Shown here piece after piece: positions 6,745 through 9,240 of a DNA stretch of 35,056 bases. The notes under the pieces were generated by a model. That model did not search any database and was not told where the DNA came from. It saw only the letters and a list, made by a program, of their open reading frames with translations. Origin of the DNA: Escherichia phage vB_EcoM-720R4; the sequence record ON470603.1, one strand, 5' to 3'. Numbering within the stretch: the stretch's first letter is position 1; each line of letters opens with the position of its first letter. A program made the position numbers and the translations under genes.

Positions 6745-6771
6745 AAAAACCGCGTGTAAACGCGGTTTTTT
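6745..6771 (-). terminator. rho-independent terminator hairpin (CCGCG-N6-CGCGG) flanked by A and T tracts, downstream of the moron ORF
   Basis: Plus strand reads AAAAACCGCGTGTAAACGCGGTTTTTT; the minus strand has stem plus U-tract; sits between the moron stop (6786) and the next gene start (6729). Confidence 0.5.
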
Positions 6772-6785
6772 ATTAGGTAATAAAA

Positions 6786-7274
6786 TTAACGATCATAATC
6801 AACATTATGAGTATCTATTCTACATGATGAATAAGTAATTCCGCTTTCACCACTAATATTTACGCCAGCCTTTACCTTCCCTGTTTTCGTAACATCAACA
6901 AAGAATTGCCCTCTTGGCATTTTAAATGCAAAAGAGAAACCAATAATTTCCGAGTCAAAGTTATTTTCATCCTCACTAATTGGTACAATAAAAGTCAATG
7001 GTGCAGATTGTGAGTTATTTTCAAAATCAAAAGCACCAATGCTTTTATTAAACTCGTAGGATGCTTTTTTTATTAAAAGAGTTCCACTTGCCGACTTTGC
7101 TGGGCATATTACAGACAGTCTATTTATTCCCTCTACATCTAGATCTATATTCTTATCCGCTGAAGTTTTAACGTTATCTATAAAGTATGTAGCAAGCTGC
7201 TTTTCCGTTACTGGCTTCGCAAAGGAGTTTAATGGCAGTCCTACAGCCAACAACAATATAAACATTTTCTTCAT
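6786..7274 (-). CDS. secreted protein of unknown function (moron); Sec signal peptide MKKMFILLLAVGLPLNSFA
   Basis: ORF in a strongly AT-rich island (about 6775-7335) inside an otherwise GC-rich tail operon; start assigned to the internal ATG preceded by AGGAGA; the ORF track's longer form begins 11 codons upstream. Confidence 0.6.
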   Translation of the reverse strand: MKKMFILLLAVGLPLNSFAKPVTEKQLATYFIDNVKTSADKNIDLDVEGINRLSVICPAKSASGTLLIKKASYEFNKSIGAFDFENNSQSAPLTFIVPISEDENNFDSEIIGFSFAFKMPRGQFFVDVTKTGKVKAGVNISGESGITYSSCRIDTHNVDYDR

Positions 7275-7338
7275 ATTCTCTCCTACATTCAGCACAAACT
7301 TTACCACTCAATAACCCTACTTGATTAAAGTAGTTATA

Positions 7339-9240
7339 TTATCGTCTGAATGGAGAATACCCCACATCGTGCGTGATTTTCATCAGGGGATCGGCTTTGC
7401 CCGGTACATCAATTATCTTCATACCTGGCGGAGCATTCTCGAACGTGACTTTCAGCTCGCTGTGCTGTGTCATGGAAGAAGATGGATTCAACAGCGGAAC
7501 ATTGGGTTTGTACTGACTCAGGCTGGCCTGATACTGCTCGTACTCTTTACGATCAAAAAAAGGCGTCCAGTCTGAAGCCAGAAACAGCCCTTTATTATCC
7601 AGCCAGTTAACCGTATCTTCAGGAACAACACTTTCCAGAGTATCTTTAACCGGCTCATACATCAGGGTTCCCAGAAAACCATATACCCCGGCCTTCCCGA
7701 TAAAGCCGCGGCCTTTCCCCATCAATCCCGTTTCTGCCGATACCTTCCCCAGCGTACGCATCTCTCTGGTCACTGCGGTAATGGATTTGGTAACGTCAGC
7801 AACCCATTTGGTTGCCATAAACAGGGCAATCGCTTTCAGAACAGTTTCCCATCCCCCCATCATCTGCGCCGTTTCATCCACCACGTGCCAGACTTTTTTT
7901 ATGACAGGACCTACGGTTTCCCAATTATCAATAATGAGGTAAGCGCCACCAACCAGAAGAGCAATCAGCCCCTTAGCAGGCGTCATATTCATCACACCGC
8001 CGAGAACTTTCATGATTCTGGACAAAGAGCCTGCAGCGGCCCCCACTGTCAGTAAAGCCAGACCGATTTTAGCAATGGTCTTAACGAGCTCCGGGTTTTC
8101 ACGGACAAACGTTCTCACTTCCTCAAGGAGCGGTTTTACCGCTTCAAGACCATCATTAACCTCAGGAAGAAACGTTTCCCCCAGAGTGGAAGAAATGGCA
8201 TCAAGTTGATTTTGCAGAAGTAAAAGCTGGTTTTCCGTCGTCGCTGCCCTCGAAGCATATTCCTTCTGCATCGAACTGCCATACTGCTGGGAATCCGCAA
8301 CCCGCCTGAAGTTGGTACGCAACAAATCAAGGTTAGTCAGCAGAGGAGCTATCGCGCCCAGAGACTCTTTCCCGAACAGGGCATTCAGCACAGCTGCCTG
8401 TTTTTCTTTAGGCACTTTAGCCATCGCATCCAGTACAGACAGCATGGTGCCCCGGGCATCTTTCTGCATATCAGCAGCTAATTTCTTCGGATTGATCCGC
8501 AGAAAACGCAATGCCTGTTTCTGCGATTTTGTCGCAGAATTTCCCGCGGTCAGGGAAAGCATGAAGTTCTTGATCCCTGTGGCGGCAATTTCTGACTCCA
8601 CGCCCATCCCGGCAATGGTTGCCCCCATTGCCGCGATTTCGCCGGAAGCCACACCTGCAACACCACCTAAAGGACCAATACGCGTAACAATATCGGAGAT
8701 TTTCTTCGCATTCGCCGGGCCGGTATTACCAAGGTAGTTGATTTTGTCAGCCAGCCCGGCCACTTCATCCTGCGTCATATTAAACGCAGTACGCCACTGG
8801 GCCATCATCTGCCCGGACTCTTCAGCCGTGGTATCAAAGGCCACGCCCATCTTCACCGCATCAGTGGCAAACTGCATCAGTTCATCACGTGCAATCCCGG
8901 CCTGACCGCCAGCCGCCACAATTTCCGCGATCCCGTCTGCAGACATGGGAAGCTCAGTAGACAAAGCGCGTACCTGCTCCGTCATGGCCTTAAACGCATC
9001 CGGCGTATCCAGACCGTCTACCACTTTGCGGACATCAGCCATCTTCGATTCAAGGGTGATGGCTGATTTTACAGGGAGTGCCAGTGCCCCCATTATTGCA
9101 GTACCCGCCCCGGCAGCGCCCAGAGCAAGGCTGGAGACTTCTTTCTGAAACCCCTTAAGCTGACGCTGCATACCTTTAAGCGGGCCGGACAGCCTGTCAA
9201 CGGCGGTGATGATGGCTTTCAGCTGAAAATTATCAGCCAT
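7339..9240 (-). CDS. tail tape measure protein
   Basis: 633-aa ORF, Ala/Gly-rich with predicted helical/coiled regions and hydrophobic segments; lies between the chaperone and DNA-circulation genes. Confidence 0.85.
   Translation of the reverse strand: MADNFQLKAIITAVDRLSGPLKGMQRQLKGFQKEVSSLALGAAGAGTAIMGALALPVKSAITLESKMADVRKVVDGLDTPDAFKAMTEQVRALSTELPMSADGIAEIVAAGGQAGIARDELMQFATDAVKMGVAFDTTAEESGQMMAQWRTAFNMTQDEVAGLADKINYLGNTGPANAKKISDIVTRIGPLGGVAGVASGEIAAMGATIAGMGVESEIAATGIKNFMLSLTAGNSATKSQKQALRFLRINPKKLAADMQKDARGTMLSVLDAMAKVPKEKQAAVLNALFGKESLGAIAPLLTNLDLLRTNFRRVADSQQYGSSMQKEYASRAATTENQLLLLQNQLDAISSTLGETFLPEVNDGLEAVKPLLEEVRTFVRENPELVKTIAKIGLALLTVGAAAGSLSRIMKVLGGVMNMTPAKGLIALLVGGAYLIIDNWETVGPVIKKVWHVVDETAQMMGGWETVLKAIALFMATKWVADVTKSITAVTREMRTLGKVSAETGLMGKGRGFIGKAGVYGFLGTLMYEPVKDTLESVVPEDTVNWLDNKGLFLASDWTPFFDRKEYEQYQASLSQYKPNVPLLNPSSSMTQHSELKVTFENAPPGMKIIDVPGKADPLMKITHDVGYSPFRR

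Follow-up and report, generated by a model that had tools for sequence, protein, structure and literature searches.

A probable exported cargo protein encoded by an optional cassette in the tape measure-gp43 slot of an SfV/SfIV-type prophage

The low-GC block in the tail operon of the DNA analyzed here (35,056 nucleotides, the whole of which we refer to as the window) is an accessory cassette, optional in nature, that fills a slot prone to recombination between the genes for the tape measure protein (TMP) and a Mu gp43-like protein. The host element is an SfV/SfIV-type prophage, whose backbone is lambdoid and whose contractile tail is of the Mu type. The TMP gene lies upstream of the slot (7339-9240, minus strand; PF10145, E = 2e-42) and the gene for the gp43-like DNA circulation/baseplate protein (DNA_circ_N) lies downstream (5356-6729, minus strand; PF07157, E = 1e-33), and these two flanks confirm the insertion between tape measure and DNA-circulation genes that was proposed in the initial annotation. 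We consider it very probable that the block represents optional exported cargo of this tail-operon slot. With regard to the role of the cargo, our preferred guess, put forward tentatively and by analogy, is that a periplasmic cargo protein may exclude rival phages.

The cargo coding sequence is a real gene. It occupies 6786-7274 on the minus strand (stop codon 6786-6788) and encodes a 162-residue product beginning MKKMFILLLAVGLPLNSFAKP, with support from its translation, a match to PHROG 5586, an AF2 model and its deep dN/dS. The same 162-residue coding sequence is annotated in RefSeq as a hypothetical protein in ETEC H10407 (WP_000738066.1, locus ETEC_RS23655) and in strain MIN14 (WP_000738065.1). 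The ribosome-binding site that had been claimed for the gene is the Shine-Dalgarno sequence AGGAGAG, read directly at 7278-7284 (minus strand), 3 nt 5' of the ATG; this site, RefSeq and the starts of the homologs all favor the ATG at 7274, and an alternative GTG start at 7307 (173 residues) was rejected. The GC content of the cargo gene is 0.344 and its GC3 is 0.264, compared with 0.49-0.58 and 0.46-0.68, respectively, for 15 other late genes. The description of an AT-rich block with a 162-residue reading frame in a GC-rich tail operon was therefore correct, including its placement, and the windowed GC comparison with the late genes identifies the cargo as the lowest-GC stretch of the window, the only one with a GC content ≤ 0.40 over 489 bp (0.3% of 489-bp windows are equally low).

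That the block is extra, optional and compositionally foreign DNA, as first suggested, is borne out by comparison with related prophages, in which the same junction is either filled or empty on the same backbone. In SfIV, where the TMP and gp43 alleles are 98.4% identical to those of the window, the cargo is absent and the junction is 24 bp; the final 2-3 codons of TMP differ, and the first ~25 codons of gp43 have been exchanged together with the cargo. When 5,426 complete E. coli genomes were compared, ~1,096 had the tail module, and cargo is absent from ~90% of the module carriers, with the gene found in ~101 genomes and an empty junction on the same backbone in 115. Gut and pathogenic E. 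coli as well as Shigella are among the carriers of the gene. The slot can also hold something else, as phage SKA5 and 85 genomes have an unrelated exported ORF there, and hhalign found no relation between the cargo protein and the SKA5 slot protein. The cargo is dispensable for making virions.

These data bear directly on the possibility that the cargo functions in tail structure or assembly, for instance as an extra chaperone or a baseplate-associated protein for this TMP allele. Such a role would be in keeping with the position between TMP and gp43, which is kept in at least six diverged lineages, and with the co-variation of the cargo with the TMP C-terminus. However, its cleavable signal peptide and cysteine pair indicate the periplasm while tail assembly is cytoplasmic, SfIV, SfV, SfI and SfII are all viable without the gene, the same TMP allele occurs without cargo in the 115 E. 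coli genomes, a paralog is disrupted by an IS1 insertion, and a tblastn search with the cargo protein and homolog P0011 gave no match in 50,697 isolated-phage records. We regard a tail component as very improbable and this reading as largely refuted already. The findings that had been named in advance as speaking against a moron point the other way: the gene is missing from some related tail modules, its product does not match a structural tail protein and a signal peptide is present. In strain PEC122, an IS1B element lies inside the matched 701-bp stretch.

The only family match of the cargo protein is to PHROG 5586, which is full-length (E = 2.6e-85) and carries no functional annotation. Pfam and NCBIfam scans of the protein gave nothing usable (a pectate-lyase Pfam line at E = 0.048 was rejected as it is at chance level and fails the family cut-off) and no anti-phage defence family in PADLOC-DB 2.0 matched at E ≤ 1. 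The family is represented by 19 clusters among 1.8e9 proteins, and a search of 5.8e9 proteins with a profile of the family alignment returned no new relatives and no informative names. Three long, repetitive, adhesin-like proteins with cadherin- or Ig-like repeats (P0021, P0022 and P0026) matched over ~60 residues and were treated as non-homologous, and a profile scan of contigs yielded the E. coli/Shigella paralog and three weak Firmicutes matches that we regard as spurious. Both flanks were found in 36 of the 38 IMG/VR loci, and all 36 have the gene between TMP and gp43, as do five further loci with both flanks. Three distant homologs instead adjoin plasmid maintenance or lysogeny genes, where the plasmid-maintenance neighbors are ParA, RepA or a toxin-antitoxin pair on contigs resembling plasmids or phage-plasmids. 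All nine family members for which the context was inspected have either a phage tail module or plasmid-maintenance genes as neighbors and none is in an ordinary chromosomal context. The cargo belongs to a tiny, orphan, phage-borne family within the Enterobacterales. Literature searches on the RefSeq accession and on a moron at the TMP/gp43 junction found nothing, and the moron described in the SfIV paper is located elsewhere, between Q and the lysis genes.

The block had also been read as horizontally acquired, and as a recent event this is not borne out by two lines of evidence. Homologs at 35-51% identity, which are also of low GC, fill the same slot in other, diverged Mu-type tail modules, and among close alleles the dS of the cargo equals that of TMP and gp43, and therefore the gene has travelled with its flanks. 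At this equal dS the cargo has an omega of 0.6-0.8 compared with 0.05-0.25 for the flanks (Fisher p = 0.003-0.013 in three of the four cargo-versus-flank comparisons and p = 0.10 against gp43 alone). The high omega is based on 8-10 nonsynonymous changes among the close alleles and could reflect relaxed constraint; the deep dN/dS of the cargo is 0.08-0.25. The C-terminal part of TMP is variable and cargo divergence tracks it, the Spearman correlation of cargo identity being 0.79 for the TMP C-terminus compared with 0.50 for gp43, although this linkage may simply stem from the two genes being neighbors, with recombination breaking at the hairpin.

That hairpin is terminator-like, has a U-run and lies 3' of the cargo stop and 5' of the gp43 start (6741-6771, minus strand). 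Its sequence, AAAAAACCGCG-UUUACA-CGCGGUUUUUAUUU, folds with -14.5 kcal/mol (z = -4.5 versus shuffles), and it was not called by a simple terminator scan, probably owing to base pairing that is possible between the A-run and the U-run; all Rfam matches, which centered on the hairpin, were sub-threshold. A stable hairpin with a U-run lies 3' of the cargo gene in 13 of the 13 lineages inspected and its stem sequences vary from locus to locus. A GC hairpin with a U-run is also found just 5' of gp43 in the cargo-less SfV and in an O157:H7 prophage, and in phage SKA5 it lies 3' of the unrelated slot ORF, and it is therefore a property of the slot and not specific to the cargo. The terminator hairpin of the initial annotation is thus present, but its ascription to the cargo itself is not supported. 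Morons were defined as syntenic extra DNA of deviant GC content, with their own promoter and terminator, that is expressed from a repressed prophage (Juhala et al., 2000, via PMC3594210). Of the moron architecture that had been ascribed to the block, the syntenic extra DNA and the deviant GC stand, while no consensus promoter was detected and the hairpin that follows the gene also occurs in the cargo-less SfV.

Scans of the window and of four homologous loci detected no sigma-70 consensus promoter 5' of the cargo on the sense strand. The 64-nt gap 5' of the cargo in the window contains a weak candidate extended -10 element, TGGTAAAGT (7298-7306, minus strand), which was noted by direct reading of the sequence and was not picked up by the consensus scan; in the L052-type homolog, TGGTAATGT lies at a similar distance from the ATG. 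An inverted repeat, CTACTT-TAATC-AAGTAG (7317-7333, minus strand), is found directly 3' of the TMP stop, and in the 96% allele its stem is perfect over 8 bp. The window also encodes a Q-type antiterminator (22770-23561, minus strand; PF03589, E = 1e-53) that, by analogy with lambdoid biology, would let late transcription pass a hairpin inside the operon. This arrangement raises the alternative that the cargo is not a lysogen-expressed moron but an accessory protein made late in the lytic cycle, which would be co-transcribed with the tail genes, exported late, and serve in masking the envelope or debris to save progeny, in guarding against lysis from without or in modulating envelope breakdown. 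The orientation of the cargo is that of the late operon, consensus promoters are lacking in all five loci, the TMP stop and the cargo ATG are only ~16 nt apart in the L010 locus, the Q antiterminator is upstream and the linkage to TMP is tight. Nevertheless, the distant homologs adjoin plasmid partition or toxin-antitoxin genes, a region expected to be active in the prophage or plasmid state, the cargo gene is far from the lysis cassette, and low-GC DNA can hide non-consensus promoters, an extended -10-like element being present here. We consider a purely late, lytic role to be unlikely.

The cargo product is, from its sequence, predicted to be a Sec-exported soluble protein. Its residues 1-19 (7218-7274, minus strand), MKKMFILLLAVGLPLNSFA with cleavage before the following KP, are assigned by rule as a type I signal peptide without a lipobox, and every feature of the rule-based definition is present, including K2K3, a hydrophobic core of 10 residues with a mean Kyte-Doolittle value of 3.0, and a cleavage site between SFA and K. 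An equivalent layout is seen in every full-length homolog, which upholds the Sec signal peptide described at the outset. The mature protein (~15.7 kDa, pI 5.2, GRAVY -0.27) has no transmembrane segment, its highest 19-residue hydropathy being 0.96. A lipoprotein of the Cor, Llp or Ltp type was rejected, since the lipobox [LVI][ASTVI][GAS]C is absent and no cysteine precedes residue 57; a lipobox-like match is found only in paralogs P0007 and P0014. The AF2 model (pLDDT 85, pTM 0.78) is an eight-stranded beta-barrel with one helix ahead of the barrel, in which two cysteines, conserved as a pair in all homologs, are located one where the first strand ends and the other within the last strand. 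An eight-stranded outer membrane barrel of the Lom/Ail/OmpX type was also rejected, as judged by Pfam membership, amphipathic membrane-spanning strands and a C-terminal aromatic residue. Foldseek gave no match at E ≤ 0.001 in the PDB or BFVD, the fold likeness being generic, and a search of all PDB sequences with the family profile gave only chance-level matches to Calx-beta and Prp8.

A barrel of this kind might instead act outside phage competition, as a host-benefit (lysogenic conversion) factor, by binding or inhibiting a molecule from the host or the environment. It could be an inhibitor of lysozyme or peptidoglycan hydrolase working like PliC, MliC or PhiA, or it could bind a small ligand in the manner of a lipocalin or avidin. 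A GH19 prophage endolysin is annotated in strain MIN14. The predicted periplasmic location, the conserved cysteine pair and the gut and pathogenic E. coli and Shigella among the carriers are consistent with such a function, and morons often encode such factors (PMC3594210). The family also carries a conserved CPxxSASG loop, which as a clue to lysozyme inhibition is only a lead from the sequence. Against this, the protein has no PF09864 match in Pfam at E ≤ 10, the family profile fails to recover 2f09, 3oe3, 4mir and 7dpy from the PDB, and hhalign aligns it with E. coli MliC in the signal peptide only, at a probability of 5%. The lack of ordinary chromosomal contexts (0/9) would also be unusual for a general host-fitness function, and we view a host-benefit factor as doubtful.

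Our preferred explanation, superinfection exclusion from the periplasm, would operate as follows. The precursor would be exported by Sec and cleaved after SFA, and the mature protein would fold in the periplasm, where a Cys57-Cys151 disulfide probably closes it. It would then bind a component of incoming contractile tails, for which we prefer the TMP or the tail-tip complex as it crosses the periplasm, and this binding would block genome delivery by related phages. The cargo transcript might start within the 64-nt gap, from a weak promoter, or might just be that of the Q-antiterminated late operon. Exclusion proteins normally need to be expressed from the prophage. The empty promoter scans of the window and the four homologous loci count against exclusion, as does the missing PADLOC match. 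The homologs that adjoin plasmid-maintenance genes show that a neighboring TMP is not required. Taken as a whole, the optional cassette together with this mechanism is possible and is offered with low confidence. A more specific version, which we think rather improbable, is that the family is a previously unrecognized class of soluble periplasmic superinfection-exclusion proteins against Mu-type contractile tails that bind the variable, envelope-crossing C-terminus of TMP. Such binding would explain why the gene stays by TMP, co-varies with its C-terminus and changes in amino acid sequence ~10 times faster than its neighbors, and on this view the TMP/gp43 gap would serve as a slot dedicated to the exchange of exported anti-phage cargo.

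The cargo is an optional extra of an already familiar architecture, the gene was already annotated as hypothetical, and the practical stakes are modest. If it is an exclusion or host-fitness factor, it would add a new fold family to the few envelope-located prophage cargoes, one that is soluble and periplasmic where its counterparts HK97 gp15 and T4 Imm are membrane proteins. The locus is also a clean natural experiment, with ~100 E. coli genomes that have the gene, ~115 that are empty and 85 with a different exported protein. It further calls for caution in moron calling in that low GC and a downstream hairpin alone prove neither recent acquisition nor autonomous transcription. In this case, the hairpin goes with the slot and low GC is retained even among deeply diverged homologs.

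With respect to known systems, the cargo model has in common with the MliC/PliC/PhiA inhibitors (PF09864; 2f09, 3oe3, 4mir, 7dpy) a predicted eight-stranded antiparallel beta-barrel, but by sequence and profile the cargo falls outside PF09864. T4 Spackle is an envelope-located superinfection-exclusion protein that is helical. T4 Imm binds TMP (bioRxiv 10.64898/2026.03.06.709160) and the Ltp-type exclusion proteins, such as Ltp of TP-J34, are cell-surface lipoproteins (PMC3952083). These are extracytoplasmic phage proteins that stop genome delivery via the incoming tail rather than the receptor, as we infer for the cargo; Imm is membrane-embedded, Ltp is a Gram-positive lipoprotein and Spackle is helical, and no relation of sequence or fold to the cargo was detected. 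The HK97 gp15 moron adjoins the TMP gene and excludes superinfecting phages in a manner dependent on the incoming tail (PMC3594210, summarizing Juhala et al., 2000 and Cumby et al., 2012). HK97 gp15 is expressed from the prophage while the cargo has no detected promoter and a hairpin that cargo-less relatives also have, and gp15 is a small inner-membrane protein whereas the cargo is modeled as a soluble periplasmic beta-barrel. The two genes are also placed at opposite ends of TMP, with gp15 between chaperone and TMP and the cargo between TMP and gp43. What unites them is that each is a single extra gene of deviant GC in the tail operon beside TMP, is absent from close relatives and has a product that acts, or in the case of the cargo is predicted to act, in the cell envelope.

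The window is a complete E. coli prophage of the SfV/SfIV type that combines a lambdoid backbone with a Mu-type contractile tail; many E. coli chromosomes match it at identities up to 100%, and its tail genes match those of the Shigella phages SfIV, SfV, SfI, and SfII. In minus-strand order, the tail tube and chaperone genes come first, followed by those for the tape measure protein (TMP, 7339-9240, PF10145), the cargo protein (6786-7274), the Mu gp43-like DNA_circ_N protein (5356-6729, PF07157), and the baseplate genes gp44 to gp48. A Q-type antiterminator gene (22770-23561, PF03589) lies upstream in the orientation of the cargo gene. 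Downstream of this ORF, a 350-aa N6/N4 DNA methylase (21111-22160, minus strand, PF01555) lies in the stretch to which the SfIV paper assigns a moron; it is possibly a further accessory gene.

The cargo ORF, whose 162-aa translation begins MKKMFILLLAVGLPLNSFAKP, is a real gene and no chance feature; its product matches PHROG 5586 along its full length (E = 2.6e-85). RefSeq lists this CDS, annotated as hypothetical, under WP_000738066.1 (ETEC H10407) and WP_000738065.1 (strain MIN14). Diverged homologs retain the frame along with the signal peptide and two cysteines, and deep pairwise dN/dS is 0.08-0.25 with dS saturated. The initial annotation described an AT-rich block whose ORF has a strong ribosome-binding site and a Sec signal peptide, and all of this is confirmed: AGGAGAG ends 3 bases 5' of the ATG, the signal peptide persists in the diverged homologs, and GC is 0.344 and GC3 0.264 compared with 0.49-0.58 and 0.46-0.68 in the 15 other late genes measured, the cargo stretch being the only one in the 35-kb window with GC ≤0.40 over 489 bp. 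Some database entries, P0001 among them, have a 173-aa version from an upstream GTG (6786-7307, minus strand, MVKFVLNVGENMKKM); with no ribosome-binding site for that start and the signal peptide left internal, it is probably a mis-call.

The gene is an extra one: SfIV shares the TMP and gp43 alleles (98.4% identity), which there stand only 24 bp apart. The exchange exceeds the gene, since differences extend to the last 2-3 TMP codons and to roughly 25 codons at the start of gp43 (6650-6729, MDFSHISSYLSSDSRSGW compared with MDLSSFPTRPSLLSSSSGW in SfIV), and we therefore regard it as a segment replacement rather than a clean insertion. The SfV-type gp43 starts with MTWKDRL and is without the ~25 N-terminal codons; a variable N-terminal extension moves together with the slot content. 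The tail module occurs in ~1,096 of 5,426 complete E. coli genomes and the cargo gene in 101, in 99 of which a 2.6-kb stretch across the TMP and gp43 alleles is covered by at least 80%. The SfIV-type empty junction is found in 115 complete genomes, and in 85 the slot holds an ORF that is unrelated, low in GC, and headed by a signal peptide, arranged as in phage SKA5 (L004 4476-4988, minus strand, 170 aa, GC 0.27-0.33); this protein had no Pfam or PADLOC match and no relation to the cargo family by hhalign. A paralog (P0007, 49% identical) is present in 11 E. coli genomes, and at locus L049 (3258-3984) IS1, with its InsA and InsB ORFs, interrupts the paralogous gene in its 5' part. Strain PEC122 has an IS1B element inside the matched stretch, a second, independent occurrence of IS1 in the AT-rich slot. 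Because filled, empty, other-ORF, paralog, and IS1-broken states coexist, the cargo gene is an optional load of a polymorphic slot. At another locus, L038 (2793-4489), a holin/endolysin/Rz cassette adjoins the cargo gene, with the junction ~40 nt before the ATG and the Rz reading frame continuing into the region upstream of the cargo. No TMP match was found within the ~4 kb upstream flank, and the arrangement resembles a deleted prophage retaining the cargo and baseplate genes.

The gene had also been credited with its own terminator. A stable hairpin with a U-run does lie downstream (6741-6771, -14.5 kcal/mol, z = -4.5 against dinucleotide shuffles), but it belongs to the slot. A GC hairpin with a U-run directly precedes the gp43 ribosome-binding site in all 13 cargo-bearing lineages inspected, accompanies the unrelated SKA5 cargo, and is present in the cargo-less tail modules of SfV (L003 4398-4440) and an O157:H7 prophage (L005 4395-4440); SfIV has no such hairpin between TMP and gp43. 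The U-run and following sequence are common to several SfV-type backbones (SfV, SKA5, L006, L021) while the stems vary between loci, and the hairpin is perhaps the recombination joint of the slot. It is no evidence that the cargo gene terminates transcription independently, and Q-antiterminated late transcripts would, from lambdoid biology, be expected to read through it. The short AT-rich spacer preceding the SfV hairpin could be a remnant of a lost cargo. On the upstream side, a consensus scan of the window and four homologous loci found no sense-strand sigma-70 promoter, a weak extended -10-like TGGTAAAGT at 7298-7306 being only a hint of one; another lineage has TGGTAATGT at a comparable distance, and at L010 the TMP stop and the cargo ATG are only ~16 nt apart. 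An inverted repeat (7317-7333, perfect 8-bp stem in the 96% allele) stands just past the TMP stop, and other lineages have sequence-unrelated inverted repeats between that stop and the cargo ribosome-binding site. A late-expressed accessory protein of the lytic cycle is an explanation we consider rather unlikely.

Horizontal acquisition as a recent event is not upheld. Other Mu-type tail modules (L013, L006, L021, L010) hold homologs of 35-51% identity in the same slot, and among IMG/VR loci both flanks were found in 36 of 38, with the gene between TMP and gp43 in all 36. Its GC (0.34-0.42, flanks 0.47-0.58) is lower in all five lineages measured; low GC is a lasting family property and not a sign of recent arrival. 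Among close E. coli alleles, the cargo has the same dS (0.024-0.044) as TMP and gp43 (0.012-0.054), and the gene was therefore inherited together with its flanks. At locus L011, a HIRAN-domain ORF (2387-2974) separates the TMP gene from the homolog P0019, which is directly followed by another ORF with a signal-peptide-like start; the contig stops short of a gp43 gene. The family is tiny: 1.8 billion proteins gave 19 cluster representatives, to which a profile search added none, and its members come from E. coli, Shigella, Pantoea, and a few metagenomic contigs only. Three distant members (26-30% identity; L008, L009, L020, one from Pantoea sp. F_7) lie outside tail modules, adjoining ParA, MazEF, or HigBA-like toxin-antitoxin pairs, with IncFII RepA in L008 and a cI-like repressor and RecA-dependent nuclease nearby, and these contigs look like plasmids or phage-plasmids. 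All copies placed are carried by a prophage or adjoin plasmid-maintenance genes. What stands of the moron reading is an optional, exported cargo of foreign composition, from an orphan family, in a tail-operon slot; the hairpin belongs to that slot and recency is unsupported.

After the predicted SFA/K cleavage, the mature chain (143 aa, 15.7 kDa, pI 5.2, GRAVY -0.27) lacks both a lipobox and a transmembrane segment. The confident AlphaFold2 model (mean pLDDT 85, pTM 0.78) has a helix at residues 24-41 followed by eight strands. Of the two nearly invariant cysteines, C57 ends the first strand and C151 lies in the last; these strands should be adjacent in a closed barrel, which would be consistent with a periplasmic disulfide. 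Foldseek gave nothing significant against the PDB and viral models. No sequence link to MliC or PliC was found. A binder or inhibitor of the PliC type that benefits the host is an explanation to which we give a low probability.

At equal dS, the cargo dN is ~10 times that of TMP (omega 0.57-0.82 for cargo, 0.05-0.08 for TMP, and 0.08-0.25 for gp43; Fisher p 0.003-0.013 in three of four comparisons and 0.10 against gp43 alone, with small counts). A structural role is very improbable. Across 26 loci, cargo identity has a Spearman correlation of 0.79 with the C-terminal 300 residues of TMP and 0.50 with gp43 (0.63 and 0.11 for pairs with cargo identity <90%), values that are descriptive only as the pairs are non-independent. 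The TMP C-terminus is the most variable part of the region (mean identity 39%, compared with 49% for cargo and 64% for gp43), and in its last 300 aa (7339-8240) only the final motif, HDVGYSPF, is kept across lineages.

A predicted-exported, soluble, optional, fast-evolving, and TMP-linked product fits a periplasmic protein acting on other phages. The mechanism we tentatively prefer is superinfection exclusion, in which the cargo protein would bind the tail tip or TMP of an incoming phage in the periplasm and thereby block genome delivery. No result on the cargo locus contradicts current understanding, and the natural occurrence of filled, empty, and differently filled slots, along with the TMP link, makes this a good and easily testable candidate. 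Precedents for the proposed role are the HK97 gp15 moron, which adjoins the TMP gene and excludes phages in a tail-dependent manner (PMC3594210), T4 Imm, which binds TMP (bioRxiv 10.64898/2026.03.06.709160), and the Ltp-type lipoproteins, whose site of action is the cell surface (PMC3952083).
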